From Candidatus Adlerbacteria bacterium (GTDB lineage Bacteria > Patescibacteriota > Minisyncoccia > Phycocordibacterales > SBAW01): a DNA stretch of 64,000 bases. Positions 8,328 through 63,383 of this stretch are shown in pieces (positions within the stretch are counted from its first letter, which is position 1; the number at the start of each line of letters is the position of its first letter). The position numbers were made by a program, and so were the translations under genes. Below the pieces are notes generated by a model that was not told where the DNA came from, made no database searches, and saw only the letters and a program-made list of their open reading frames with translations. Location: positions 44,898 through 108,897 of the forward strand of contig PLCJ01000002.1 of assembly GCA_003135635.1 (NCBI GenBank), in the 5' to 3' direction.

Positions 8328-10103
8328 ATGACTCAGATCAGAAATTTCAGCATCATAGCCCATATCGACCACGGTAAATCGACACTGGCTGACCGATTTC
8401 TTGAACTTGCGGGAACAATTGAGAAGCGCAAAATGCGCGAGCAAGTGCTTGACTCGATGGAGCTTGAGCGCGAGCGCGGGATTACCATTAAAATGCAGCC
8501 GGTTCGTATGCTGTGGCAGGACTATGTGCTCAATCTCATCGATACGCCGGGCCACATTGATTTCTCTTATGAAGTCTCCCGTGCACTCTCTGCAGTTGAG
8601 GGGGTGATCCTTCTGGTTGATGCGACTCAGGGTATCCAAGCTCAGACGCTCACGACCTTGCGCATGGCCCAGGCTCTGGAACTGGTCATTGTGCCTGCAG
8701 TATCGAAAATTGACTCGCCGCTTGCGCAAACAAACGACACACGTCAGCAACTTTCTTCACTTCTCTCTGTACCTCTTGATCAAGTTCTCTTGTGTTCAGG
8801 TAAAACAGGAGAAGGAGTAGCCGAGCTTCTTCAGGCGGTTATTGATCTAATACCTCCACCATCTGCCCAAACACAAACAACACTCGCCAGAGGGCTCGTA
8901 TTTGATTTTCAATATTCTGACCACCAAGGCGTTATCGTATATTTGCGTATTATGGAAGGAGAAATTAAAAAAGGGGAATCATTGGAATTTGCGGTAAGCG
9001 GTCACACGTTTACTGCTCTTGAGGTTGGCATCTTTTCGCCCCAGCCGACCGCAAAACCTTTCCTTAAGGCAGGGGAGATAGGATATGTGGTGACTGGAAT
9101 CAAAAGTCCCGGGTTTGCGCGGGTGGGGGATACCATTCGTGCCCGAGGCTCCAAAGCGGCACCCTTATCGGGGTATATCGAGCCCAAACCGGTGGTATGG
9201 GCAAGTATATATCCTGAAAGTCAGGACGATTTTATTCTCTTGCGCCAGGGGCTTTCTCGTTTGCGTCTTTCTGATTCAGCGCTTTCGTTTGAGGAAGAAT
9301 CCTCAGGAATGCTCGGCAGAGGATTTCGCTGCGGGTTTTTGGGGATGCTCCATCTTGAAATTACGACAGAGCGTCTTCGCAGGGAGTTTGCTCTTTCCCT
9401 GGTTGTTACGACACCCACCATCACCTATGAAGTTGAAACACGCGACGGCAAACGTCACACCGTGTACTCACCGGCACAGTTTCCTGAGTACGGAGAGATT
9501 GTCCATATATGGGAGCCGTTTGTGCGTGCCCAAGTGATTGCCCCTTCCCAGTACGTTGGTGCGATCCTACCTCTTTTGTACGCGCATGAGGCTAGCGTTG
9601 AGACAACAGATACTTTTTCTGAAGGACGGGTTGTGATAGAAGCGATTATGCCACTTCGCGAGATGATGCGAAATTTTTTTGATAAGCTCAAAAGCGCAAC
9701 GTCTGGATATTCATCTGTCTCATATGAATTGCGTGAATTGCGCTCTGCAGATGTCGCTCGACTCGATATCTTTCTCGCCGATGAACTCGTCCCCGCATTC
9801 TCGCGCATTGTCGCAAAACACCATGCATATGAAGAAGCGCAGGCAGTCGTTGAGAAACTCTACGCTATTTTGCCTCGCCAGCAGTTTGCGGCAAAGATCC
9901 AAGGAAGAGCATTGGGGCGCATTCTTTCTTCAAAGACGCTTCCTGCACTGCGTAAAGATGTGACCGGATATCTCTATGGGGGAGATAGAACACGTAAAAT
10001 GAAACTCTGGGCAAAACAAAAACGGGGCAAAGAAAAACTCAAGGAGCGTGGCCGCGTCCATATTCCAGAGGAGGTGTTTTTAAAAATGATAAAATCCGAG
10101 TAA
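8328..10103 (+). CDS. lepA: elongation factor 4 (LepA)
   Basis: GTPase motifs [14 protein letters not shown] and SKID. LepA-specific C-terminal domain. Confidence 0.95.
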
Positions 10104-11151: not shown

Positions 11152-11194
11152 CCCCTGATATATCCTTGTATGTCTTTCTGATATAGTATATGCC

Positions 11195-11521
11195 GTGGAT
11201 CCTGAGATAGAGGAATTAAAAGATATGGTGCACCGGAGTCTCGCTCTTGCCGAAGATACTAACCGAGTAGTTCACGGTATGCGATCAATCATGGCCTGGG
11301 GAAGATTCTTTAGACTCCTGTGGTGGGTAGTGGTTATCCTGGGAGCCATTGCGCTATATCATTACTATCTTCAGCCGTACATAAAAAATCTGGAACAACT
11401 CTATCAGCATACGCAATCGCAGACACTGCAAGTGCAAAACTTTGGCACGCAGTTGTCAGATTTTATAAAAAACCACTTTATCCCTCAGACGCCTACTTCA
11501 TCACAAGTGGGATCGCAATAA
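11195..11521 (+). CDS. hypothetical small membrane protein
   Basis: 108-aa ORF with one central TM helix, lying between two tRNA genes. Confidence 0.4.
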   Translation: MDPEIEELKDMVHRSLALAEDTNRVVHGMRSIMAWGRFFRLLWWVVVILGAIALYHYYLQPYIKNLEQLYQHTQSQTLQVQNFGTQLSDFIKNHFIPQTPTSSQVGSQ

Positions 11522-12123: not shown

Positions 12124-12813
12124 TTAACAATAATCTCGCTGTGGTATTTTTACTCGCTCAAGCAGTAGCAGCAAAGCGATGATGCCGATCCAGATGAAAA
12201 GGAAGACCAACAATATTCCTCCACCACTCTCACTGAGTATAAAAAAATTAAAAAGAGCATGCAATGCAATGGCAAGGATAACTCCACCCAGTGCCACACG
12301 TATGCGCACGGAAGCTGGCTGGTTGTATGCCAGCGCGATTGTGATGCCGATCGTTGCTGAGGCAAGCGTATGGAGGAGTGTTGCACCAATAAAGCGCATA
12401 TCGCCAGTCAAGAGTGTGTGGATGAAATCGCCCTGCACAATCGAGGGCACCAAAAAAAGTGCATTTTCCACCATTGAGAATCCAAGTGCTGCGGTAACGA
12501 GGTATATGACTGCGTCAATAGGTTCATTAAAGACACCCCACCGCAGTGCAACAAAGTACGCCGCACCAAACTTCAATATCTCTTCTGTAGCTGCCCAGGC
12601 GGCATATAGGAGGATACCGCTCAGAAATCGTTGCGCGTACTGCTCTATGGGGAGCGCCAGAACAACCATCGCCATACCGGCCAGAAAGCAGAAAAAGATA
12701 TATTGTTTGGGCTCCGGTTCACAGCGATCTTCAAGAAGCCAAAAAGAGAGCCAGAGTATAGCGGGTAAGACCGCTCCAAGAAATGCCAAAAAAAACACCA
12801 GCGAAAGAGCCAT
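12124..12813 (-). CDS. PrsW-family intramembrane protease
   Basis: Polytopic membrane protein with EExxK (TEEILKF), FxxxEN (FSMVENALF) and a downstream conserved His region. Confidence 0.65.
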   Translation of the reverse strand: MALSLVFFLAFLGAVLPAILWLSFWLLEDRCEPEPKQYIFFCFLAGMAMVVLALPIEQYAQRFLSGILLYAAWAATEEILKFGAAYFVALRWGVFNEPIDAVIYLVTAALGFSMVENALFLVPSIVQGDFIHTLLTGDMRFIGATLLHTLASATIGITIALAYNQPASVRIRVALGGVILAIALHALFNFFILSESGGGILLVFLFIWIGIIALLLLLERVKIPQRDYC

Positions 12814-12833
12814 GCATTAAGTATAGCGTTGTT

Positions 12834-17294: not shown

Positions 17295-17966
17295 ATGGAT
17301 TTTTTTAAAGCAGAAAATCCAGATGGATGTGCTAAGGTACTTGCAGAGAAAATAGATGGGTCTTTGAAACAAGGAGAAAAAGTTTTGTGGCTCCTCTCTG
17401 GAGGCTCAAATATTCCGATTTCTGTTGTGGCGATGAACATCCTTAGAACCAGAAATACCGATGGTGTACTTAGTAATCTTGCCGTCACTCTCACTGATGA
17501 ACGATATGGCCCGGTGGGACACAAGGATTCAAATTGGCAACAGCTTGTCGATGCAGGTTTTATTTTTACAAAAACCAAACTACTACCAGTACTTAAAAAT
17601 CTTTCGCTTGAGAAAACAGTGATGGACTATGACAATGGAATCACTGATCTTTTTCAGTGGGCGGACAAAAGTATTGGTCAATTCGGCATCGGTAACGACG
17701 GACATATCGCCGGGGTCCTTCCCCACACAAGTGGGGTTTTTGATCCGGGTGTCGCAGTCTCATATGAAGCACCTCCTTTCACACGCATTACCCTGACTCT
17801 GAAGACAATACAAAAAATCTCGGCAGTCTATGCGTTTGTGTTTGGTCAGTCAAAAAAAGCCACTCTCTCGCATTTGCAAGGAGAGAATCTCTCTCTCAAT
17901 GAAGAACCCTCGACGGTCTTGAAGCTTCTACCGGAGGCGTATCTGTATAGCGATCAGTTAATATAA
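17295..17966 (+). CDS. pgl: 6-phosphogluconolactonase (NagB/RpiA/CoA-transferase-like family)
   Basis: 223 aa with a SOL/DevB-type fold pattern. Adjacent to gnd. Confidence 0.7.
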   Translation: MDFFKAENPDGCAKVLAEKIDGSLKQGEKVLWLLSGGSNIPISVVAMNILRTRNTDGVLSNLAVTLTDERYGPVGHKDSNWQQLVDAGFIFTKTKLLPVLKNLSLEKTVMDYDNGITDLFQWADKSIGQFGIGNDGHIAGVLPHTSGVFDPGVAVSYEAPPFTRITLTLKTIQKISAVYAFVFGQSKKATLSHLQGENLSLNEEPSTVLKLLPEAYLYSDQLI

Positions 17967-18020
17967 AGAGCTACCCATTCTATCCAAAAACATCTTGCTC
18001 ATTTGAAACTTTTTGCTCTG

Positions 18021-18107
18021 CGGAGAGGGTGGGATTTGAACCCACGATCCAGTTTCCCAGATGCCGCATTTCGAGTGCGGTGCCTTCGACCACTCAGCCA
18101 CCTCTCC
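18021..18107 (-). tRNA. tRNA-Ser(CGA)
   Basis: Read on the reverse complement: acceptor GGAGAGG/CCTCTCC, anticodon loop CTCGAAA, long variable arm, discriminator G. Confidence 0.85.
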
Positions 18108-18162
18108 AAAAACATTGGCAACAATAGCATTTTTTTTTGATCTAGAATATAGTTTTCTGTGC

Positions 18163-18234
18163 GGCCCCATCGTCTAACGGTTAGGACATCGGCTTTTCAA
18201 GCCGGTAATCCGGGTTCGATTCCCGGTGGGGTCA
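18163..18234 (+). tRNA. tRNA-Glu(TTC)
   Basis: Acceptor GGCCCCA/TGGGGTC, D-arm TCGTCTAACGGTTAGGACA (Glu-like architecture), anticodon loop TTTTCAA, T-loop TTCGATT. Confidence 0.85.
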
Positions 18235-32804: not shown

Positions 32805-34112
32805 ATGAAGCTCTCCACTTTCCAATTTGCAGTTTTGGCTTTCTTTATTCTTTTTACTATTGCCGGTGTGGTTGCCTTCGCTGTTTTTGGAAGGGGCGCT
32901 AACAATACGAGTGTAGGTCCGGTGACCATCTGGGGTACCGTCGATGGACAAACCATGGACACGCTTATTACAACGCTCAGTTCACAAAATAAAATATTTC
33001 AAAACGTTACCTACGTGCAACTAGATCCAACTACGTATAGCGCAACACTCATTAATGCACTTGCCAGTGGGAACAGCCCTGATCTTTTTTTAGTAACTCA
33101 GGATACTGTGTCGAGCTTCGCAAATAAACTTTCTCCCATTCCTTATAATGCAGTCTCTCAAGCATCATATCTCTCCTCATTTATCGATGAAGGACAGCTC
33201 TTTTTGACACCGCAAGGATCTTTGGCGCTTCCTTTTATGATCGATCCCTTAGTCATGTATTGGAATCGAGATCTCTTTGCTTCTGCGGGCATAGCACAGC
33301 CTCCTTCCCATTGGAGCGACTTTCTTTCCCTGACGCCTAAAATCACTTCAATTGATGCACAATCAAACGTTGCGCGCAGTGCGGTTGCGCTTGGTGAGTG
33401 GCAAAACATTACTGATGCAAAAATGATTCTCTCGGCGCTTTTTATGCAGGCGGGAGATCCGATAGTCACCCGGGCGCAAAATGGCGCACTACAGTCAGTA
33501 TTTGGCGCAACACCAAGTGGAGCGGTGTCTAATCCAGCAGCGTCCGTACTTCTTTTTTATACCGAATTTGCAAATCCCTCAAAGACCACCTATTCATGGA
33601 ATCGTTCTCTTCCGCAATCGCGCAATGATTTTGCAGCGGGGAATCTGGCGGTGTACTTTGGACTTGCAAGTGACGATCCGGTATTAACCCAAAGCAATCC
33701 TAATTTGAGTTTTGGGGTTGCAGAGCTTCCTCAAATTCAAAATAATCCCACGCAGCTGACCTTTGGAGAATTAACTGGTATTGCCATTTCACGCATTGCA
33801 GGAAATCCGCAAGGGGCGCTTGCTGTTGCAGAGGCGCTTTCTGCTCCAGCCGCACAGCAACAACTCGCTGCGGAAACTAATTTACCGTCTGTACGACGCA
33901 GTCCTCTCACCGATACTTCAGGAAATGCGACAGAAACTGTTTTTGCACAATCAGCACTTATCGCACACGGTTGGCTCGATCCCGACCCAGCATCTACGGA
34001 CCTACTCTTTCAAGGCATGATAGAATCGATATTAAGCGGCAATCAAGAGCCTGCGGGGGCTGCGAGTGCTGCTTCGCAACAAATGGCTCAGTTGGTGAAT
34101 CCACAACAATGA
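32805..34112 (+). CDS. membrane-anchored extracellular solute-binding protein (SBP_bac_1-like), orphan
   Basis: N-terminal TM anchor and a periplasmic-binding-protein fold pattern. No ABC permease or ATPase genes adjacent. Confidence 0.55.
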   Translation: MKLSTFQFAVLAFFILFTIAGVVAFAVFGRGANNTSVGPVTIWGTVDGQTMDTLITTLSSQNKIFQNVTYVQLDPTTYSATLINALASGNSPDLFLVTQDTVSSFANKLSPIPYNAVSQASYLSSFIDEGQLFLTPQGSLALPFMIDPLVMYWNRDLFASAGIAQPPSHWSDFLSLTPKITSIDAQSNVARSAVALGEWQNITDAKMILSALFMQAGDPIVTRAQNGALQSVFGATPSGAVSNPAASVLLFYTEFANPSKTTYSWNRSLPQSRNDFAAGNLAVYFGLASDDPVLTQSNPNLSFGVAELPQIQNNPTQLTFGELTGIAISRIAGNPQGALAVAEALSAPAAQQQLAAETNLPSVRRSPLTDTSGNATETVFAQSALIAHGWLDPDPASTDLLFQGMIESILSGNQEPAGAASAASQQMAQLVNPQQ

Positions 34113-34513
34113 AAGGATTTTTAAGAATATTTTTCACATCTGCGTTTCTTTTTCTACTCCCTTTTGTTTGTTGGGGACAAAGTGGGGGTTCAAGCGCATC
34201 TCCAATAAATGTCACTCTCCAAAATCCACTAAGCCAAACCACATTTTGTCAGCTCTTTAAACAAATATTAGATGTTGCTCTCGCTCTTGGCACACCGGTC
34301 ATTATTTTTTTTATTGTGCTTGCTGGTTTTAAGTTTGTATGGGCTCGGGGTAATGCAGAAAAACTTACAGAAGCACGAGACAATCTTCGCAATACTATTC
34401 TTGGGATAGTTCTATTTCTGGGGGCATGGGCCCTCACTATGGTGGTGGCGGGAACTATCAATACTCTCAATAGCGCAGGAGGTGGTGGGAGTCCTTTAAT
34501 CGCTTCCTGTTAA
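34109..34513 (+). CDS. pilin-like small protein P1 (signal peptide plus two hydrophobic helices; VirB2/TrbC-like architecture)
   Basis: Start at the internal ATG (MKGFLRIFF) of ORF 33971..34513. Signal peptide, then a helix / charged loop (KLTEARDNLRN) / helix arrangement paralogous to the next three genes. Confidence 0.55.
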   Translation: MKGFLRIFFTSAFLFLLPFVCWGQSGGSSASPINVTLQNPLSQTTFCQLFKQILDVALALGTPVIIFFIVLAGFKFVWARGNAEKLTEARDNLRNTILGIVLFLGAWALTMVVAGTINTLNSAGGGGSPLIASC

Positions 34514-45232: not shown

Positions 45233-45293
45233 AACTTCTATAAAGTACAACACCTTGGGTTTATCCGCAAAAAATCCTGCTATAATAACAACC

Positions 45294-46769
45294 ATGAACA
45301 CGCGCGCATTATGCGCATGGCTTGTTAGTCTCTGGTTCTTTTTTGTACCGTGTTTAAGCTTTGCTCAAGCACAAAGTACTAGCTCATCAACCTCCGCAAC
45401 CACCACTTCCTTCTGCTCCCTTAGTGTTTCCCCGCAGACCATACCCCAAGGAGCTTCCACTCTTCTCTCTTGGAAAAGTAGTACTACAACAACCTCTGCC
45501 ACGATCTCAGGCATTGGTCCAGTTGCGGCTTCCGGTGCACTGTTTGTCGCACCAACCCAATCGATTACCTTTGTCGGAACTTTCACTGGCCCTTGGGGGA
45601 TGATTCATTGCTCCGTGCCACTTTATGTAACTGCACCCTCTTCCAGTCAATCAGGAAGCGGAACAGGCGTAACAGGCGGAACAGTAGGAGGGGGAAGTGT
45701 GACCTATACTCCACCCACTACGGGAACAACCCCTGCGTATACAGGCACCCCTTCATCTCAAACTCCAGGGTATTCAGGTACTCCAGCCTACTCTGGCACT
45801 CCTGGTTACACTCCACCAATTACCTCCACACAACCCTCCTCTCCAACGACACCCACCTTCAATGCAAGTTCTTTGTCGTACCCCGCATCAACAGGCAACA
45901 CCAGTGGCTCGGGAGCGGTGAGTAGTTTGGTGCCACAGTGCGCGGGCGGTGCTACTGAGTGCACTCTGTGTGACCTTGAAAAACTTATCCAAAACATCAT
46001 CAATTTTGCTCTTGGTCTTTCAATTCCTATCGCTATGCTTCTTTTCGCGATGGCTGGCATTCTTTATTTTACTTCCGGAGCGAACCCCTCTAACACTGAT
46101 CGTGCAAAAAAAATCTTCTCTGCCACATTTATGGGTCTCCTTATTGCTATCTCTGGCTGGCTTCTCGTACAGACAGTGATGAATGTATTTGTTACCGGAA
46201 AAAACTTCACGGACTGGAGCTGGAATAATCTACAATGCTCACCAACGCCATACACACCGACGACCGTTACCCAATGGCTCAATAGTGTTTTGGGATCGGG
46301 ACTGGGTAGTACGTTATCGCCGACGGGGGGAGGTGTTACCAGCGGTTCTGGTGCTCAGTGTGCGAGTGGCAAATCTGCCTGTAGTCCAGCGGCTCTACAG
46401 GCGGTGGGATATACTCCAGCTCAAGCTAATGCAATGTCATGCATTGCTGTGACCGAAAGTAGTGGTAACCCGCAAACACCCAACAGTTCAAGCGGCGCGT
46501 GTGGGACATTTCAGATATTGCAATCCAATTGGAACAATCCTAACTATCATGGACCGGGTTGCAGTAGTGCGACATCGTGCAATGACGCGGCGTGCAATGC
46601 ACAGACAGCGCGGATAATGTTTAATCAGTCAGGGTATCAGCCATGGACAGGAGTATATCCTCCCGGTTCTATTGTGGATGGACAAAATCTGTCAGGACAA
46701 CATTGGAACGCGAACGCAGTCAGTTGTGTCCAGATGTATGATCCAAATACCACTGCACAGCTGCAATGA
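45294..46769 (+). CDS. secreted Thr/Ser/Pro-rich protein fusing a pilin-like two-helix module to a C-terminal SLT-family lytic transglycosylase domain
   Basis: Signal peptide; GTPxYSGTP repeats; central motif LIQNIINFALGLSIPIAMLLFAMAGILYF...KKIFSATFMGLLIAISGWLLVQ paralogous to P1-P4; C-terminal SLT signature CIAVTESSGNPQTPNSSSGACGTFQILQSNW. Confidence 0.6.
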   Translation: MNTRALCAWLVSLWFFFVPCLSFAQAQSTSSSTSATTTSFCSLSVSPQTIPQGASTLLSWKSSTTTTSATISGIGPVAASGALFVAPTQSITFVGTFTGPWGMIHCSVPLYVTAPSSSQSGSGTGVTGGTVGGGSVTYTPPTTGTTPAYTGTPSSQTPGYSGTPAYSGTPGYTPPITSTQPSSPTTPTFNASSLSYPASTGNTSGSGAVSSLVPQCAGGATECTLCDLEKLIQNIINFALGLSIPIAMLLFAMAGILYFTSGANPSNTDRAKKIFSATFMGLLIAISGWLLVQTVMNVFVTGKNFTDWSWNNLQCSPTPYTPTTVTQWLNSVLGSGLGSTLSPTGGGVTSGSGAQCASGKSACSPAALQAVGYTPAQANAMSCIAVTESSGNPQTPNSSSGACGTFQILQSNWNNPNYHGPGCSSATSCNDAACNAQTARIMFNQSGYQPWTGVYPPGSIVDGQNLSGQHWNANAVSCVQMYDPNTTAQLQ

Positions 46770-57670: not shown

Positions 57671-58722
57671 CAAAAAAAGATGAGCGCGCCCCTCAAGCGC
57701 TGTACCGAAAATATCGCCCCACCACCTTTGATGAAGTTCGCGGACAAGATGAAGTGGTAGCGGTGCTGCGCGCGGCTGTAGCTAAGGGTGTCATCGGACA
57801 CGCTTATCTCTTTGCGGGGAGCCGCGGCACGGGTAAAACGTCGATGGCGCGGATTTTGGCGCATGCACTTAATGTCAGCGAAAAGGATCTGTATGAAATT
57901 GACGCGGCGAGCAATAGGCAGGTTGATGACGCGCGGCAACTGCGCGAAGGAGTGGCGACGCTGCCCTTTGAGTCAATGTATAAGTTCTATATTCTCGATG
58001 AGGTGCATATGCTCACAAAAGAGGCGTTCAACACGCTTCTTAAAACGATCGAGGAGCCACCCAAGCACGTGATTTTTGTTCTTGCGACCACGGAGCTTGA
58101 AAAAGTACCCGAAACGATTCAATCACGCTGTCAGGTATTTCAATTCAAAAAACCTTCTCGAGAGGCGCTCAAGGAGCTAGTGCTTGATGTGGCAAAAAAA
58201 GAAAAAGCTTCTCTTTCGCCTACCGGTGCGCAGCTCATCGCGCTCATGGGAGATGGTTCTTTTCGTGATGCGCTTTCAATTTTGCAAAAAGTTCTTACGC
58301 TTTCAAGTGATACAAAGCTAATGGAAGAAGAAGTTGCTAAAGTCGTTGGTGCGCCTCCAGGAAGCGTCGTCAATGATTTTCTCACCGCATTTGCGGAGAA
58401 ACGTATTGGAGCGGCACTTGAGGTGTTCCACAGCGGACTTGCCGGGGGCGTTGATCCGCGGGTCTTTACTTTATTGGTTGTAGAAAAAGTGCGCGCGGTA
58501 CTTCTTTTGCGGTTTGCTCCAGAGCTTAAAAAAGAGCTTCATGAGCAATTTGGCGAGGATGATTTTGTATTTCTTACTACCCTCGCGGGCAAGAAGGGGA
58601 GTACAATACATGCGGCTCTGTTGGCTGAACTTATTACTGCGCTTATTGAAATGAATCGGGCGCCCGTGCCCCAAATACCTTTGGAGCTTGCTCTGTACCG
58701 TACGATGGAGCAGGATAAATAA
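57667..58722 (+). CDS. dnaX: DNA polymerase III subunit gamma/tau, short form
   Basis: YRPTTFDEVRGQ, Walker A GSRGTGKTS and the clamp-loader AAA+ module. Only 351 aa. Confidence 0.8.
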   Translation: MTKKDERAPQALYRKYRPTTFDEVRGQDEVVAVLRAAVAKGVIGHAYLFAGSRGTGKTSMARILAHALNVSEKDLYEIDAASNRQVDDARQLREGVATLPFESMYKFYILDEVHMLTKEAFNTLLKTIEEPPKHVIFVLATTELEKVPETIQSRCQVFQFKKPSREALKELVLDVAKKEKASLSPTGAQLIALMGDGSFRDALSILQKVLTLSSDTKLMEEEVAKVVGAPPGSVVNDFLTAFAEKRIGAALEVFHSGLAGGVDPRVFTLLVVEKVRAVLLLRFAPELKKELHEQFGEDDFVFLTTLAGKKGSTIHAALLAELITALIEMNRAPVPQIPLELALYRTMEQDK

Positions 58723-58725
58723 TAT

Positions 58726-58799
58726 TGGGAGATCGTCTAACGGTAGGACAGCGGCCTTTGGAGCCGTGAATCTAGGTTCGATTCCTAGTCTCCCAGCCA
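58726..58799 (+). tRNA. tRNA-Gln(TTG)
   Basis: U1-A72 acceptor TGGGAGA/TCTCCCA (typical of bacterial tRNA-Gln), anticodon loop CTTTGGA, T-arm CTAGGTTCGATTCCTAG, encoded CCA. Confidence 0.85.
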
Positions 58800-58830
58800 G
58801 TATGAGATAGGTTCGGACTCCGATAGGAGT
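58793..58830 (+). repeat. cassette-boundary repeat copy 0 (tRNA-Gln 3' end plus 30-nt flank: CCAGCCAGTATGAGATAGGTTCGGACTCCGATAGGAG)
   Basis: 32 of 34 positions identical to 59701-59738; a related copy lies at 60351-60382. Confidence 0.8.
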
Positions 58831-58841
58831 AATATATTTAT

Positions 58842-59060
58842 ATGGGCAAGACTACAAAAATTGTCATAGGCGTAATCGTTGCAGTTGCCGTTATTGTGGC
58901 TGGCTATGTGTTCCTAAGTGCCCACAACAACGATGCAAATCAAAATACCAGTAGCAACGCAAACCAAGGCATCATAATAGGAGGCAATCCGTATGACCAA
59001 ACGCATTTACAGCGCACCCTGAATTCCGGAGGAACACCTGGGGACGGTGGCGGAGGGTAA
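58842..59060 (+). CDS. hypothetical small membrane peptide with Gly-rich C-terminus
   Basis: 72 aa, one TM helix. First cassette ORF after tRNA-Gln. Confidence 0.4.
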   Translation: MGKTTKIVIGVIVAVAVIVAGYVFLSAHNNDANQNTSSNANQGIIIGGNPYDQTHLQRTLNSGGTPGDGGGG

Positions 59061-59128
59061 TCTTAGTGAATCCTAGGTTTTAGTAAATCGCCAGATGCCG
59101 CAGATCATGCCGAACCTTTTGCTATAAT

Positions 59129-59159
59129 GGTTCCAACTTTGTACCAGACACCCAGTCAA
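59129..59159 (+). repeat. cassette-boundary box, copy A (GGTTCCAACTTTGTACCAGACACCCAGTCAA)
   Basis: One of four copies of a ~31-nt box (59129, 59679, 60324, 61830). A TATAAT lies just downstream at 59165. Confidence 0.75.
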
Positions 59160-59176
59160 CTCGGTATAATGCTTAC

Positions 59177-59677
59177 GTGACATACAAATCCAAACTTATA
59201 GTCATTCGAGGCAATTCAGGTGTAGGTAAAAGTACTATAGCCAAGAAATTAAGAAACCCTAGCGATCGTAAAATAGCTATCGTCGAGCAAGATTACCTGC
59301 GTCGTTCCATCTTGGGTGAAAAGGAGAAGAAGGACGGCGATAATATTGATTTAGTGTTTCAAACAGTATCGTTCGCTCTTTCTCGAAAGTATGACGTGAT
59401 TCTTGAAGGAATCTTAAGTTTCTCGCGATATGGGACGATACTTAAAAATTTAAGAGATACTTGTCCAGAGAATTATTTCTATTATCTCGATATTTCCCTG
59501 GAAGAATCATTTAAACGGCATGCCACAAAACCAAACTCTCATGAGTTTGGGGAAGAAGAGATGACCCAGTGGTATAGACCTTTGGACTTATTAGGCTTCA
59601 CAAACGAGGTGTTAATTCCTGAGACCTCTTTGCTGGATGAGACTGTAGAGACCATACGCACCCAGACGGGCTTATAG
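59177..59677 (+). CDS. P-loop NTPase of the small kinase type (AAA_33/zeta-toxin-like fold)
   Basis: GTG start. Walker A GNSGVGKST, a 166-aa kinase-like architecture with lid region. Confidence 0.55.
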   Translation: MTYKSKLIVIRGNSGVGKSTIAKKLRNPSDRKIAIVEQDYLRRSILGEKEKKDGDNIDLVFQTVSFALSRKYDVILEGILSFSRYGTILKNLRDTCPENYFYYLDISLEESFKRHATKPNSHEFGEEEMTQWYRPLDLLGFTNEVLIPETSLLDETVETIRTQTGL

Positions 59678-59678
59678 T

Positions 59679-59738
59679 AGTTCCAACTTCGTTCCACACA
59701 CCCAGCCAGTTTGAGATAGGTTCGGACTCCGAGGAGAG
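59679..59738 (+). repeat. cassette-boundary repeat copy B (31-nt box plus the 29-nt tRNA-Gln-flank-like segment)
   Basis: AGTTCCAACTTCGTTCCACACACCCAGCCAG followed by TTTGAGATAGGTTCGGACTCCGAGGAGAG. Near-identical to the tRNA-Gln 3' flank. Confidence 0.8.
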
Positions 59739-59751
59739 TAAAGAAATTTCC

Positions 59752-60324
59752 ATGCCCTCACGTCCAAAATATGCGACCCCTAATTTTTTAGAGTTTTATG
59801 CGCTCTTCCCATTTCCGGATCCAAAATCAAAACATACTGCAGATCTAGCGCTCTCATACTACATATACGCTGAGTATCAATACTTCGCTTACGTCAATAC
59901 ATATACTAAGTTTTTTAAAATAGAAAATCCTAGCCATGATGAAGTAATGGCTCATCTTCGTGAATCCTGGTCATTCGCATTTGGAATGTATGGACAGCTT
60001 CGCACGACCATCGAAGCCTTGAGGGGGATGAGAAAAATGATAGGTGATAAAGAACCCATAGACAAGTATTACGAAGAAAATATTTCCCGGCTCGTGGATG
60101 TCATGAATGACATCGTTAAACATCCAATGTATAAGCATTCAGAGCCGTCGGAAGCTTGTGAACCACAGGCACTTTCTATGAATGGTGAAATAGATATAAT
60201 CACCTGGTCTGACGAGGGAGAATCGTCCAAAGAAACCCTCGACCCAGGGAAGGACTTCATGGTTATACATGACTACCTTGAGTATCTGGCCGAGAGGCTC
60301 TCAGGTACTAAGAAAACAAGTTGA
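59752..60324 (+). CDS. hypothetical protein (190 aa)
   Basis: ORF immediately after repeat copy B. No recognisable motifs. Confidence 0.4.
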   Translation: MPSRPKYATPNFLEFYALFPFPDPKSKHTADLALSYYIYAEYQYFAYVNTYTKFFKIENPSHDEVMAHLRESWSFAFGMYGQLRTTIEALRGMRKMIGDKEPIDKYYEENISRLVDVMNDIVKHPMYKHSEPSEACEPQALSMNGEIDIITWSDEGESSKETLDPGKDFMVIHDYLEYLAERLSGTKKTS

Positions 60325-60382
60325 GTTCCACCTTTGTACCAGACGGTCGGCCAGTTTGAGATAAGTTTGGACTCCAAGGAAT
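60324..60382 (+). repeat. cassette-boundary repeat copy C
   Basis: AGTTCCACCTTTGTACCAGACGGTCGGCCAG followed by TTTGAGATAAGTTTGGACTCCAAGGAAT, ending at the ATG 60383. Confidence 0.75.
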
Positions 60383-61495
60383 ATGAAAAACAAAGAAGTA
60401 AAAACCAACCTAGAAGAATTTTACAAGAAGGTAAGGGCTTACCGGGATTTGCTTTTGGAATCTCGAAATGCCTACATGCCAGAGATTGAAAAGAATCATG
60501 AGCAAATTGCTCAGCAAAAAAAGGATTTGATACGTGATTACGCAAAACTGCAATCTGTAATAGAAAAATTTGGGAAAAAGCCGAAGATGAATGATGGTGT
60601 TTGGAATGTTTGGTTTTCTCCCTACGATAATGCTTTTACAAGCGACACTTTGATTAGGGTTGGGCCATCTCTTGATGCGGTGTTAGAAGACCTTGATTTT
60701 GCGATAGGAAAACTAGAAGGCATCGACGACGAAGAGGAAGTTTTAATAAAACCCAAAGAGCATAAAATTAAAAAGTCTCCTGTGTTAAAAGAAGGAGAGG
60801 ATTTTTTGAGTAAAATTGACCGCGCGATTAACTTAGCTGAGCAAAAGTTGCTAAAGGGAGAGGAACTTAATAATTTAATTTCGGATTTGAAATCCTATAA
60901 GCCACCAACAGAATCTGAGGAAATACCCAAAAGAAAACTTGAGAAAATTCAACGCGAGCCAAATACGGTTTGGAGCGACCCAAAAGGTTACGCAATCGGT
61001 GGTGTTGCGCTACTCTCTCCTTGGAGAGAGGTATTTTTGGAGCTAACTTCGCCTGAGAAATCGTCGTCCCAAAGATATTTTCGTCCCGGTTCAAGAGAGG
61101 AAATACTCGCATATCTGCGACCTCTAGTATCTTCTGCAAAGAGTATTCGAATATACGATAATTATCTTGGCGATGAGGTGTTAAAGCTCTTAGAAAGCAG
61201 TGCAAGTGATGCTGAAATACAGATTCTCGGGGGTGGAGGTCAGGTTGATCCTCGTTTTATTAGTAAACTCCCTGCGTTTGCGACATATTTCGATAAAAAA
61301 ATAGAGGCTAAAAAAACGTCGAAGGTTGCTCATGCGCGCTTCTACATTGTTGATACTCTCGTTTACCATGTAGACCCCTCTCTAAAAGGCAACGGTGCTG
61401 ATCAAGCGACAGTTATATCTCCTCTTGAAAAGACAGAAGCAGAAAAGGTAATTAATGATTTTGAGCAATGGTGGTCGTTGGGAGAGAAAATTTAG
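60383..61495 (+). CDS. hypothetical protein: N-terminal coiled coil, C-terminal domain with a PLD-like HxR/K...D motif (tentative)
   Basis: 370 aa. Charged helical N-terminal half; the C-terminal 130 aa contain KVAHARFYIVD and a GGGG loop. Confidence 0.4.
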   Translation: MKNKEVKTNLEEFYKKVRAYRDLLLESRNAYMPEIEKNHEQIAQQKKDLIRDYAKLQSVIEKFGKKPKMNDGVWNVWFSPYDNAFTSDTLIRVGPSLDAVLEDLDFAIGKLEGIDDEEEVLIKPKEHKIKKSPVLKEGEDFLSKIDRAINLAEQKLLKGEELNNLISDLKSYKPPTESEEIPKRKLEKIQREPNTVWSDPKGYAIGGVALLSPWREVFLELTSPEKSSSQRYFRPGSREEILAYLRPLVSSAKSIRIYDNYLGDEVLKLLESSASDAEIQILGGGGQVDPRFISKLPAFATYFDKKIEAKKTSKVAHARFYIVDTLVYHVDPSLKGNGADQATVISPLEKTEAEKVINDFEQWWSLGEKI

Positions 61496-61535
61496 TCACT
61501 CCGAGGAGCGTCAAAATGGTAGAGTAAAAGCATCT

Positions 61536-61787
61536 ATGACCAAAAAAGGGATCACCGGTGGCATAGTACACAAATTGCCGGAGGACTTACGAAAGGCCAT
61601 TACTTCAACGCCTGCGGCGCGAGCAGTATGGGAGGATATTACACCACTTGCGCGCAATGAGTGGATCTGCTGGGTCATTTCTGGGAAAAAAGCGGAGACA
61701 AGGAGTATCCGTATCAAGAAGGCACTCTCGAAACTTAAAGGCGGAATGCGCAGGCCTTGTTGTTGGGCCGGCTGTATTCATCGTTGA
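61536..61787 (+). CDS. YdeI/OmpD-associated (bacteriocin-protection) family small protein
   Basis: LPEDLRKAITSTPAARAVWEDITPLARNEWICWVISGKKAETRSIRIKKAL matches the YdeI C-terminal consensus. Start at the internal ATG of ORF 61455..61787. Confidence 0.55.
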   Translation: MTKKGITGGIVHKLPEDLRKAITSTPAARAVWEDITPLARNEWICWVISGKKAETRSIRIKKALSKLKGGMRRPCCWAGCIHR

Positions 61788-61829
61788 AAGCGACGCCCCT
61801 GATGTTTTTCAATCTCTCTGACATAACAT

Positions 61830-61860
61830 AGTTCCAACATCGTACCAGACAGTCGGTCAA
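61830..61860 (+). repeat. cassette-boundary box, copy D (AGTTCCAACATCGTACCAGACAGTCGGTCAA)
   Basis: Fourth copy of the 31-nt box, upstream of the promoter for ORF 61977. Confidence 0.75.
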
Positions 61861-61926
61861 AGATTTTAGTTTGTAAAATAAGATGGTTTTAAAACAAGAG
61901 AATCAGACGATAGAACCTAATTTGGT

Positions 61927-61954
61927 TTGACATCAAGAAGTAGTTTGGTAGTAT
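61927..61954 (+). promoter_or_regulatory. sigma70-like promoter: TTGACA, 16-nt spacer, TAGTAT; followed by AAGGAG RBS 8 nt before ATG 61977
   Basis: -35 at 61927-61932, -10 at 61949-61954, Shine-Dalgarno at 61963-61968. Confidence 0.5.
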
Positions 61955-61976
61955 CGCCGCAGAAGGAGTACTACAC

Positions 61977-62306
61977 ATGCTTCCAACTATGGCAGAGCGT
62001 GTCGCCACTGGCGCGGGCCTGCTCGATAAAGTAAGACCCGGCTGGGCTCGTCAAATCTCGATCCCCGCCATGGACATGGGCGACGTCGGTTTCTGTGTGC
62101 TCGGCCAGATCTTTGGTGATTACACAACCGGACGCGTAACTCTTGGCCTCAGCAAGAAAGACACAATCGCCCACGGGCTCTTGCTTACATATGCCGGCAT
62201 GCCCGGGGAGGAGCAGTACAGCGAACTTGCCGCTCTCTGGCATCAGCAAATCAAACGTCGGAGGGGACTGCGTGCATTTGGCCATTTCATCTTGCCTGCC
62301 GGCTAG
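61977..62306 (+). CDS. hypothetical protein with conspicuously GC-rich third codon positions (putatively horizontally acquired)
   Basis: 109-aa ORF with its own promoter and RBS. Local GC and GC3 are visibly higher than in flanking genes. The antisense ORF 61971..62420 is rejected. Confidence 0.45.
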   Translation: MLPTMAERVATGAGLLDKVRPGWARQISIPAMDMGDVGFCVLGQIFGDYTTGRVTLGLSKKDTIAHGLLLTYAGMPGEEQYSELAALWHQQIKRRRGLRAFGHFILPAG

Positions 62307-62498
62307 CAGTAGCTCCGCGCTCCACAAAGAAGCTCCTCGCTTCTGTGTGGGGCTTCTTTGTATGTACCGAGTAAGGTAGTAGGTTAGAATGTCTACCAAG
62401 TCCTCACCACAACAAACCATGAATAATCCGAAAGGCTCACTAAAGAGGTTCTAACGTCGTCCAAGCCACGCAGCAAAAAAAATTAAAAACTATGGGAA

Positions 62499-63383
62499 CT
62501 ATTGCACGGCATCAGTGAATATTACCAATCTTTGAGTATAGCTTAATTGGGACTGATTCCAGGTTCCTTCGCAAGTGATAAGAACGAGATGAGCGCCATT
62601 GTCTTGGGAGATAAAAACATCAGTAGCATCCGCTGTAGGATCGTACAGACGGCTCTCGCGAACCACGAAAGTGATTGTTTGTCCCTTGTCGTTTAGAACA
62701 TACAACTTGTCCCCCGGCAGTAACTCATTCAAATTATAAAACACGCCTTGTTTCGTCACTGTGCTGTTGCGTATCTGAGCAACATGCCCAGTAATAATGG
62801 CATTGCCTTCTTCTCCAGGGTGCGGACTGCCCGTATACCACCCCACATCGACAATATTGGTCGGTATTTCCATTGTCCCGTCCGACTTGAGACCAGTATA
62901 CTGGAAGCCTGCATCAATGTTGAGCTTTGGAATCATGAGACGCACGGGAGACCCGTCCCCATTGTTCGCGATGGCCATGCTTGTCGTTGCAACTGAAGTA
63001 GTCGTTGTTGCAACAGAACTTTGCACCCCTATTGCACTGATTGGTGCTTGCGGAGCAGTCGCGTTAATTTTCCTTCTCGAGATAGGGCCGAAAAAACCGG
63101 CTGGAGGATAAACACCTGCCAATGCCTGCCACGTGCTAACAGCAGTTCTGGTCAAGGGGCCAAAGTAACCTGTTGGGGTAACAATTTTTAGAAAACCGCT
63201 ATCAATTAAAAATTGTTGCAGGGCGGATACGTCGTTCCCATAACTCCCGAAAGCAAGGTTACGCGCAAACGAAAAAGTCGTTGAAGACGTGATGGATGAG
63301 AAATCCTGTGCACGCGCACCGCTTCCAATCATAAAGACACAAATGAGCAATACAATAAAACATATTTTATTCGACGCTCTCAT
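62499..63383 (-). CDS. sortase-family transpeptidase with N-terminal peptidoglycan-binding (PG_binding_1-like) domain
   Basis: N-terminal signal/TM; PG-binding motif NDVSALQQFLIDSGFL...GYFGPLTRTAVSTWQ; sortase beta-barrel with a catalytic Cys in LVLITCEG (TLxTC motif) and a conserved His upstream. Confidence 0.65.
   Translation of the reverse strand: MRASNKICFIVLLICVFMIGSGARAQDFSSITSSTTFSFARNLAFGSYGNDVSALQQFLIDSGFLKIVTPTGYFGPLTRTAVSTWQALAGVYPPAGFFGPISRRKINATAPQAPISAIGVQSSVATTTTSVATTSMAIANNGDGSPVRLMIPKLNIDAGFQYTGLKSDGTMEIPTNIVDVGWYTGSPHPGEEGNAIITGHVAQIRNSTVTKQGVFYNLNELLPGDKLYVLNDKGQTITFVVRESRLYDPTADATDVFISQDNGAHLVLITCEGTWNQSQLSYTQRLVIFTDAVQ

Follow-up and report, generated by a model that had tools for sequence, protein, structure and literature searches.

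Small gene cassettes bounded by a conserved box downstream of tRNA-Gln: an apparently integron-like array without a nearby integrase in Candidatus Adlerbacteria and its relatives in the Candidate Phyla Radiation

Cassettes and boxes downstream of tRNA-Gln

The window analysed here, i.e. the whole stretch of 64,000 nucleotides (nt) taken from contig PLCJ01000002.1 of a Candidatus Adlerbacteria bacterium, is also contained in the 340-kb metagenomic contig ena:ERZ19973380:c_000000010050 and carries, beside one unusual locus, housekeeping genes (FtsZ/FtsA, GyrA, IF-2, ClpB, TopA, SerRS, 15 tRNAs and RNase P RNA). At this locus five small, unrelated gene cassettes are stored downstream of a tRNA-Gln gene, each of them closed by a box of ~35 nt, and the tRNA gene anchors the resulting array as its presumed primary attachment site; related arrays form a family that extends through the whole Candidate Phyla Radiation (CPR). 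The genes upstream are, in this order, serS, an FtsQ-like gene (275 amino acids (aa), a conserved neighbour), dus and dnaX, whose stop codon lies 3 nt before the start of the tRNA. The full array spans positions 58726-62476, since a fifth box extends it towards the convergent sortase gene (62499-63383, minus strand), whose stop codon is 23 nt away. Its features are listed below, where F denotes a flank repeat found behind the tRNA and behind some of the boxes, and core denotes the few nucleotides that a box shares with the tRNA end.

58726-58799, plus strand: tRNA-Gln(UUG) with encoded CCA (ARAGORN; Rfam tRNA, 62.6 bits; dnaX-tRNA-Gln synteny kept in relatives)
58793-58841, plus strand: core O (CCCAGCCA, tRNA 3' end) and F copy 0 (GTATGAGATAGGTTCGGACTCC) (sequence; flank-repeat search)
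58842-59060, plus strand: cassette 1 gene, a 72-aa membrane peptide with a Gly-rich tail (open reading frame (ORF) and Pfam scan)
59124-59158, plus strand: box 1 and core (…GGTTCCAACTTTGTACCAGAC ACCCAGTCA), then a non-F flank (nhmmer 35.3 bits; 29/35 to the CPR consensus)
59159-59677, plus strand: cassette 2, with TATAAT at 59165-59170, 6 nt before a GTG start, and a 166-aa P-loop kinase at 59177-59677
59674-59751, plus strand: box 2, core and F copy (attP-like junction), 2 nt after the kinase stop (nhmmer 34.1 bits)
59752-60324, plus strand: cassette 3 gene, 190 aa, without family match (Pfam and further family searches)
60319-60382, plus strand: box 3, mutated core (GGTCGGCCA) and diverged F copy (nhmmer 26.2 bits)
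60383-61787, plus strand: cassette 4, with a 370-aa protein (60383-61495), an F remnant (61498-61510) and an OmdA/YdeI protein (61536-61787)
61825-61859, plus strand: box 4 and mutated core (AGTCGGTCA), then a non-F flank (nhmmer 32.7 bits; consensus match)
61860-62361, plus strand: cassette 5, with a promoter TTGACA-16-TAGTAT (61927-61954), a 109-aa ORF (61977-62306) and a terminator-like hairpin (62324-62361; inverted repeat I13)
62442-62476, plus strand: box 5, degenerate, distal end of the array (repeat family D1; 25/35 against a background maximum of 20/35)

The boxes at 59129, 59679, 60324 and 61830 match a 22-mer with one or two mismatches, none being expected by chance (0 matches in 100 shuffles), and score 26-35 bits in nhmmer. 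These four positions had been given correctly in a preliminary description of the window, which had missed the fifth, degenerate copy; the latter agrees with the CPR consensus at 25 of 35 positions, while the best match in the other 58.6 kb of the window, on both strands, reaches 20 of 35, and it is not significant by nhmmer. No further box was found by the 22-mer search elsewhere in the 64 kb, nor in the 10 kb that adjoin it. The boxes all come after a gene, with gaps of 69, 2, 0, 43 and 141 nt between the stop codon and the GTTCC of the box, so that a position once described as directly upstream of a gene start is better related to the gene before it, directly behind which the box closes a cassette on its 3' side. 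From the proximal to the distal box there is a weak gradient of decay in the window, and none in the array of another locus (L009).

The flank repeat F (CCAGTWTGAGATAGGTTCGGACTCC) occurs without mismatch at 58797 and 59706 and with two mismatches at 60351, and shuffled sequences gave no match. A degenerate third copy had been noted before at the last of these positions. For the first two copies, previously reported as 34 nt with 32/34 identical, the recurrence holds and the figures are approximate, the interval quoted for them (58793-58830) being 38 nt long; on re-reading, its first 32 nt are identical to 59701-59732 at 31 of 32 positions, and a small indel follows before the Shine-Dalgarno sequence. 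Three forms of junction are found in the window, namely tRNA-core-F, box-core-F (boxes 2 and 3) and box-core followed by unrelated sequence (boxes 1 and 4), and this unrelated sequence has a promoter signal of its own. The trinucleotide after the discriminator-equivalent G tracks the downstream flank (CCA with F, TCA without it) and not the variant of the box, which places the junction at the tRNA end. F provides the ribosome-binding site of three promoterless genes in the window, and its distance from the preceding core is constant in Adlerbacteria, Parcubacteria and Saccharibacteria. It had been taken for a decaying copy of the chromosomal flank; it is probably an optional 5' module of some cassettes instead.

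The genes between the repeats are unrelated to each other, and Pfam and further family searches found their content to be as first described, with the exception of one label. Behind the tRNA, F copy 0 and a hairpin (ACTCC-GATA-GGAGT) that holds the Shine-Dalgarno sequence precede the ATG of gene 1, and a weak terminator-like hairpin was scored at 58817-58830; a comparable small Gly-rich membrane peptide is the first cassette of locus L124. The kinase of cassette 2 matches AAA_33 (Pfam, E=2.4e-7) and is PRK06762-like (E=2e-57), the cassette has a GC content of 0.40 as compared with 0.476 for the window, and its mRNA is possibly leaderless, as read from the distance between TATAAT and GTG; this TATAAT was not flagged by a two-hexamer promoter scan. 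The F copy after box 2 supplies GAGGAG ahead of the ATG at 59752, and box 3 overlaps the stop codon of gene 3. The diverged F copy behind box 3, which shows a paired change (TCGGA/TCCGA to TTGGA/TCCAA), is directly followed by the ATG of gene 4. Cassette 4 probably represents two fused cassettes, because its two genes differ in GC content (0.40 in the gene of the 370-aa protein, 0.51 in the OmdA/YdeI gene) and have between them what is left of a 3' portion of F (ACTCCGAGGAGCG, 61498-61510; repeat family D4). The label 'PLD-like' formerly given to the 370-aa protein could not be confirmed; its last 145 residues match the NCBIfam 'VPA1262 family N-terminal domain' weakly (E=3e-6, below the cut-off). 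Homologues of the OmdA/YdeI protein with 50-86% identity are present in seven other box loci, and conservation of this cassette at the DNA level was not seen. Cassette 5, finally, has a GC content at third codon positions (GC3) of 0.63 in its 109-aa ORF. Taken over all cassettes, GC ranges from 0.40 to 0.58 (0.476 in the window), and GC3 from 0.35 to 0.63, compared with 0.454 +/- 0.048 for long ORFs.

Elsewhere in the window, type IV secretion system (T4SS)-pilin domains occur in two ORFs (33971-34513 and 45255-46769), one of them fused to a lysozyme-like/SLT domain, in keeping with reports of a conjugation-like type IV secretion apparatus in Patescibacteria.

Box arrays and tRNA genes across the CPR

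An exact scan with the pattern GTTCCAMCWTYGTWCCASAC over a 596-Gb collection, composed of contigs from one genome per species, returned 110 stretches, with ~35 matches expected by chance in the whole collection according to our own arithmetic. About 90 of them belong to CPR/Patescibacteria: ~77 by the title of the record (Saccharibacteria, Paceibacteria/Paceibacterota, Adler-, Kaiser-, Nomura- and Zambryskibacteria, Moraniibacteriota, Minisyncoccia, Microgenomates, and unclassified Parcubacteria/Patescibacteria), and another 13 that are titled 'bacterium' and have the same sequence context as the CPR copies. The 20 stretches from other taxa mostly come without a core, and about half of them are situated within long ORFs. 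The box, which might have been private to this tRNA-Gln locus, is so within the window, and beyond it is a phylum-wide element present at ~90 CPR loci. One contig binned as Nitrososphaeraceae (L091) shows the full box context of CPR type, with an A-rich lead-in, the core CGGCAGC and a score of 32.9 bits, and is probably a mis-binned CPR contig; a contig binned as an actinobacterium (L060) has a weaker box (25 bits) and no Gln-type core. For both alike, transfer of the box outside the CPR may be considered.

A logo of 117 copies displays an A at -6 (88%), an A-rich run, R, the 20-mer, and NN-CC-A-G-C, often continued by CA, with nothing conserved past the core. The consensus of the box reads as two direct GTWCCA(G)AC units ~11-12 nt apart. 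In the CPR the boxes are intergenic, and often a small ORF of the same strand stops 0-10 nt before them. An earlier suggestion that they might be a general promoter or 5'-untranslated-region motif of housekeeping genes was not borne out, the genes that they follow being small accessory ORFs.

Arrays were searched with a hidden Markov model made from the copies of the exact scan. There are ten boxes in L009, where they follow tRNA-Gln, eight in L110 and six in L095, and contig JADGRH010000002.1 (Chersky_89) has 16, distributed over two arrays within 24 kb. Successive boxes are separated by a median of 616 nt (109 intervals, interquartile range 346-964), and the ORFs of the arrays, with a median length of 137 aa, are co-oriented with the boxes in 140 of 182 cases; the orientation of the boxes is constant within an array although the other 42 ORFs are opposed. 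Box identity amounts to 0.83 within an array and 0.72 between genomes, i.e. there are array-specific variants. Pfam, applied to 125 ORFs of the arrays, revealed accessory cargo of an integron-like kind, namely NUDIX (8), GNAT (4), P-loop kinases (4), SAM methyltransferases (3) and DNA methylases (2), accompanied by glyoxalase, serine hydrolase, erythromycin esterase, MsrA and others. Restriction-modification genes and one IS1595 transposase are present in box loci too.

Two further observations concern genes and units that accompany the arrays. Small GIY-YIG nuclease genes stand in or beside six loci (L078:5389-5751, L111:3808-4170, L068:5972-6271, L114:1679-2029, L045:7190-7486 and L026:5326-5733); in L078 and L111 such a gene is the first cassette after tRNA-Gln, and in L068 and L114 it lies directly upstream of the tRNA. 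These genes are enriched near arrays and far from universal. Both arrays of Chersky_89 (L038 and L044 of JADGRH010000002.1, minus strand) close with a near-identical unit of ~330 nt (reverse-complement coordinates 8790-9100 and 17866-18175 of the stitched 40001-64000 region). This unit comprises a TTGACA-17-TATAAT promoter, an RNA 5' end (GTGGTAGGTTCGGAGC) similar to F (TTG.G.TAGGTTCGGA), a hairpin of terminator type and, at its end, a 72-nt tRNA-like gene, which scores as a sub-threshold transfer-messenger RNA (36 and 31 bits), obtains no ARAGORN call and holds, in its long 'anticodon' stem, the reverse complement of the RNA 5' end of the unit.

The association with tRNA genes extends to other genomes. 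Among 91 arrays, 37 have a complete tRNA-Gln gene upstream on the same strand, typically with the first box ~0.7 kb away, four have a 3' fragment of tRNA-Gln, and two each have tRNA-Tyr, tRNA-Ser and tRNA-Glu, while in 26 the upstream sequence is too short to judge the presence of a tRNA; one of the Chersky_89 arrays starts at a bare 27-nt 3' fragment of tRNA-Gln that adjoins the stop codon of rarA. In the 7 nt behind the box the tRNA 3' end is repeated, in a version that goes with the species of the neighbouring tRNA. CAGC ends 96 of 150 cores; beside tRNA-Tyr the core is GGCGCA(C) (L010, L015), beside tRNA-Ser it is CTCCGC in L070 (TCTCCGC) and the related TCCCCGC in L113, and a tRNA-Gln ending in GGGTAAC is accompanied by the core GGGTAAC (L037). 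The first three bases of the core often differ from the local tRNA, as is expected if the crossover takes place in the last few bases and the rest is borne by the cassette. The preliminary notion of a tRNA-anchored cassette array is corroborated by these same-strand arrays downstream of tRNA-Gln, by cores that track Gln, Tyr and Ser, and by the different genes found in relatives.

Genomes whose DnaX is 45-79% identical mostly retain dnaX-tRNA-Gln, and the genes after the tRNA differ, e.g. histidine phosphatase, a hydrolase and MazG in L005, and other small genes in L006 and in the P0004 contig. The relatives do not carry the same genes in the same order without repeats; it is different genes that are seen at the same backbone. 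Boxes are present in a minority of 48 metagenomic dnaX relatives (L124, L141, L154 and L155, with weak matches in L142 and L166). The tRNA-Gln site is a hot spot, and the box occurs only here and there in the relatives, as mobile DNA would.

Other sequences use or adjoin the same tRNA end. In two loci, tRNA-Gln is also present in longer partial copies that closely follow the complete gene and precede the boxes, comprising the 3' 58 nt in L154 (7885-7943) and ~35 nt in L141 (+56 after the tRNA), which suggests a second type of element with a longer attachment repeat using the same tRNA. At least ten CPR loci (among them L006:12716-12871, L028, L047, L067, L088, L125/L126, L140, L144 and L166) possess a non-coding element of ~140-215 nt directly after tRNA-Gln. 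It opens with a conserved T.GAACGCAGTG..GAA, continues with the reverse complement of the 3' 22 nt of the tRNA, split by a hairpin, and with a conserved core (…GAACGGCGGAGTATAAAATTTTCAGCAGAAAATTTT…CCAGAC…), and then repeats the 3' 13-20 nt of the tRNA a second time, ahead of CCA and F (L006, L088) or of F-like sequence (L166). No Rfam match was obtained in the five loci run, and the element resembles either an RNA of tRNA-minihelix type or a very small insertion element that uses this attachment point. L005, the nearest relative for which DNA was available (DnaX 79% identical), has no box; a different repeat of 36 nt (…CTTGGAYGWTAGAACCAAGGTATACT), located at 11163-11198 and 12796-12831 ahead of two genes downstream of its tRNA-Gln, is probably a promoter or operator.

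Formation of the arrays

On these grounds we regard it as rather likely that the array consists of five mobile cassettes, probably six at the outset, which were inserted serially at the 3' end of tRNA-Gln by a site-specific recombinase that acts in trans. Repeated site-specific recombination had been proposed from the window; the comparative tests speak in favour of a tRNA-anchored cassette array, from which we infer both the recombination and an enzyme performing it. A cassette has an optional 5' module (either the conserved leader F with its ribosome-binding site or a promoter of its own), a body with usually one ORF, and a 3' attachment site. In this site an A-rich stretch leads into the 20-nt box GTTCCAACWTCGTWCCASAC, behind which a 7-nt core reproduces the final bases of the tRNA (NNCCAGC, optionally extended by CA). 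A recombinase encoded elsewhere in the genome would bind the box of a free, presumably circular, cassette, and strand exchange would occur within the short core, the partner being the identical core at the tRNA 3' end or in a resident box-core; the tRNA would stay intact because the junction lies at or after the discriminator base, and repeated insertions would stack the cassettes. A core of ~7 bp has the length of the overlap region of tyrosine recombinases, and a one-armed layout recalls the sites of IntI and Rci. The enzyme that we favour would accordingly be of the tyrosine type with an asymmetric site, as in IntI or Rci, with the conserved box as one arm, a core of ~7 bp common to the tRNA end, and a free other arm. 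Promoterless cassettes of F type could be read from the dnaX-tRNA-Gln transcript, while others would bring their own promoter.

Several observations weigh against this proposal. Within the window, Pfam detected no recombinase of any class among nearly all plausible ORFs from 150 aa upwards, in accordance with the preliminary description, and XerD had no phmmer match there; nor was one found in the 10 kb beyond it, nor in ~90 box loci and 48 dnaX-relative loci searched by phmmer with XerD and gamma-delta resolvase, probes that distant integrases could escape. No integrase was present in any tRNA-to-box interval, including the longest. The large ORFs adjoining boxes encode a TPR-PIN protein, a GNAT fusion, peptidases, an erythromycin esterase and one IS1595 transposase. 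As candidate engines we dismissed the conserved 275-aa neighbour, which is FtsQ-like, the proteins without assigned family beyond the sortase gene, which do not recur near other arrays, and the GIY-YIG nuclease, whose six loci are too few. Moreover, no excised circle, empty site or array polymorphism was seen, and gene order is identical in all four contigs that carry these exact cassette proteins, so that no current rearrangement is visible. The species-level collection contained no near-identical pairs differing by one cassette, and assembly breaks in a Logan sample, considered as population variants, turned out to be ordinary fragmentation. In the window, mutations affect three cores out of five (CGG for CAG, or CACGCAGCA), so that its array may be partly fossil; ~20 box copies have no tRNA in at least 2 kb of upstream sequence; the match between core and local tRNA is often limited to the last 4-5 nt; and the 20-nt box is conserved across classes as much as, or more than, tRNA stems, which is unusual for the arm of an att site.

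The arrays might instead have been assembled by transformation and RecA-type homologous recombination, with no dedicated recombinase and with the tRNA-Gln gene and the box of 27-35 nt as homology anchors; conservation of the box would follow from the larger number of genomes open to cassettes with the consensus. The lack of a recombinase near any of ~140 loci, the homogenisation of boxes within arrays and the duplicated 330-nt unit behind both Chersky_89 arrays agree with such an exchange, and natural competence has been reported for Saccharibacteria (PMC10187176). The junction, on the other hand, is precise and sits at the discriminator position, and the box-cores matched to Tyr and Ser share only 6-7 nt with those tRNA genes, far less than RecA needs, so seeding at the tRNA end cannot be homologous. 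Boxes of 27-35 nt are also at or below the usual minimal length of homology, and altogether we find this explanation unlikely, if not negligibly so. Decayed remains of ordinary integrase-carrying islands or prophages at tRNA-Gln would account for the duplication of the tRNA 3' end, their classic signature, and longer partial tRNA-Gln copies (L154, L141), which likely derive from other elements, do occur at the same site. Yet neither an integrase nor an obvious fragment of one is present in ~140 loci, the units have a median of ~0.6 kb and usually one gene, the same 20-nt box bounds units in different classes, and the box is absent from 2.9 million viral contigs and without meaningful match in phage and plasmid records, which makes islands that have lost their integrases quite improbable.

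It could further be asked whether the box acts on RNA, as a terminator, a processing site or a stability element mimicking the tRNA 3' end, the arrays then having arisen by duplication and not by mobility. Its frequent location right after a stop codon, on the coding strand of ~77% of the ORFs, its A-rich lead-in and the likeness of the core to an NCCA end of a tRNA would suit such a role. A 3' element of this kind is nevertheless difficult to reconcile with the single orientation of boxes per array in spite of 42 opposed ORFs among 182, with cores that change with the species of the neighbouring tRNA, with the absence of a copy after any other gene of the window, and with the unrelated genes of differing composition between the boxes. 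Folding, proposed earlier as a search for dyad symmetry, revealed neither a conserved pairing partner nor an excess of folding energy, and Rfam 15 matched only the tRNA in 58600-62600 at E up to 10, with no match to the box or F, and only tRNAs and RNase P RNA in the whole window at gathering scores; we therefore hold the RNA role to be improbable. A true integron array lacking its integrase (CALIN), in which box and F together form the attC site, has in its favour the integron-like cargo and two box-O-F junctions where TTCCAAC/GTTCGGA loosely resemble R'' (RYYYAAC) and R' (GTTRRRY) and 10 of 11 positions could pair. This pairing is not kept in the F copies of other genomes, most boxes have no F, the best downstream 10-nt complement is no better than an upstream control, attC sites are conserved in structure and the box in primary sequence, and no IntI is present; an attC nature of the site is, in our view, extremely unlikely.

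Some narrower ideas on the repeats were likewise discarded. An attC-like hairpin of the box 5' end with F leaves most boxes partnerless. As a folded tRNA 3' half, the box would align its TTCG with the T-loop (MAFFT), and the T-stem cannot pair; its similarity to the 3' third of tRNAs is weak (5.1 compared with 2.7 +/- 1.4 in shuffles) and not specific to tRNA-Gln. F as a promoter is contradicted by hexamers that are inconsistent between copies, and a CRISPR array by spacings of 0.3-1.5 kb that bear genes and are not short non-coding spacers.

With serial insertion by a trans-acting site-specific recombinase as the preferred explanation, a broader and more tentative proposal can be made, namely that the CPR have a phylum-wide gene-capture platform of their own, analogous to the integron, in which the 3' end of tRNA-Gln, co-transcribed with dnaX, would serve as the site of insertion and expression, and the 27-nt box-core would be read by a chromosomal recombinase, possibly of a new type. 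If true, this would be a main route of accessory-gene exchange in reduced genomes with few mobile elements.

Comparison with known gene-capture systems

The CPR make up a large share of bacterial diversity and have tiny genomes with few recognisable mobile elements, and their acquisition of accessory genes is poorly understood. Full-text literature searches retrieved no description of box arrays, and relevant terms were likewise not met with in a 2025 paper on genetic exchange in Patescibacteria. A searchable 27-nt marker that delimits single-gene cassettes beside tRNA-Gln offers a direct handle on the mobile gene pool of these bacteria, and the box is a concrete DNA bait for the responsible recombinase. 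For those few Saccharibacteria that can be cultivated, the tRNA-Gln end might also provide genetic tools with a neutral and expressed site of integration.

Among known systems, the tycheposons of Prochlorococcus islands target tRNA genes and accrete in tandem, with a duplicated tRNA segment of typically ~40 nt (10.1101/2020.12.28.424599). The box arrays are similar to them in that insertion at a tRNA leaves partial tRNA 3' copies as direct repeats, and in that newcomers push older units along and give rise to variable islands beside the tRNA (10.1101/2020.12.28.424599). Tycheposons, however, encode their integrase and many have replication genes, neither of which is carried by the box cassettes; the units of the latter are ~0.6 kb in size, and their duplicated tRNA segment measures 7-8 nt and stands beside a conserved box that is not derived from the tRNA. 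By analogy, integrative mobile elements exploiting Xer (IMEX) and pdif modules would be comparable in having no recombinase of their own, in employing a chromosomal enzyme at a short site and in stacking in tandem, whereas the box lacks, by inspection, the 11-6-11 dyad of dif-like sites, and the target is a tRNA end and not the replication terminus. The sfx sites of shufflons, recognised by Rci, are asymmetric, with a 7-bp core between an arm that is conserved and one that is not. Their layout as tyrosine-recombinase sites may be analogous to that of the box, but sfx sites are inverted with respect to each other and bring about inversions inside a single gene cluster, while the boxes are direct repeats that bound unrelated genes.

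A further likeness is to integrons, chromosomal cassette arrays and integrase-less CALINs included, with which the box arrays share one-directional series of short, mostly single-ORF, co-oriented and unrelated cassettes, a recombination site at the cassette end that abuts or overlaps the stop codon, anchorage at one fixed site, some promoterless cassettes that rely on an upstream promoter, a cargo rich in GNAT, NUDIX, methyltransferase and glyoxalase genes, and array-specific variants of the repeat. The resemblance to a small integron noted in the preliminary description therefore stands in its functional part and falls with regard to an attC-like hairpin. In contrast to integrons, the box arrays have no adjacent IntI, their site is a conserved linear sequence, they are anchored at a tRNA 3' end and not at attI, and one site is common to a whole superphylum and not confined to one species. 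As there is no adjacent IntI, no attC structure and no integrase encoded by the element, the arrays fail the defining tests of both the integron and the tycheposon, and what is found here looks like an undescribed, integron-like gene-capture system without a nearby integrase. It would be a second case of gene capture in the style of the integron, with a recombination site that is apparently unrelated.

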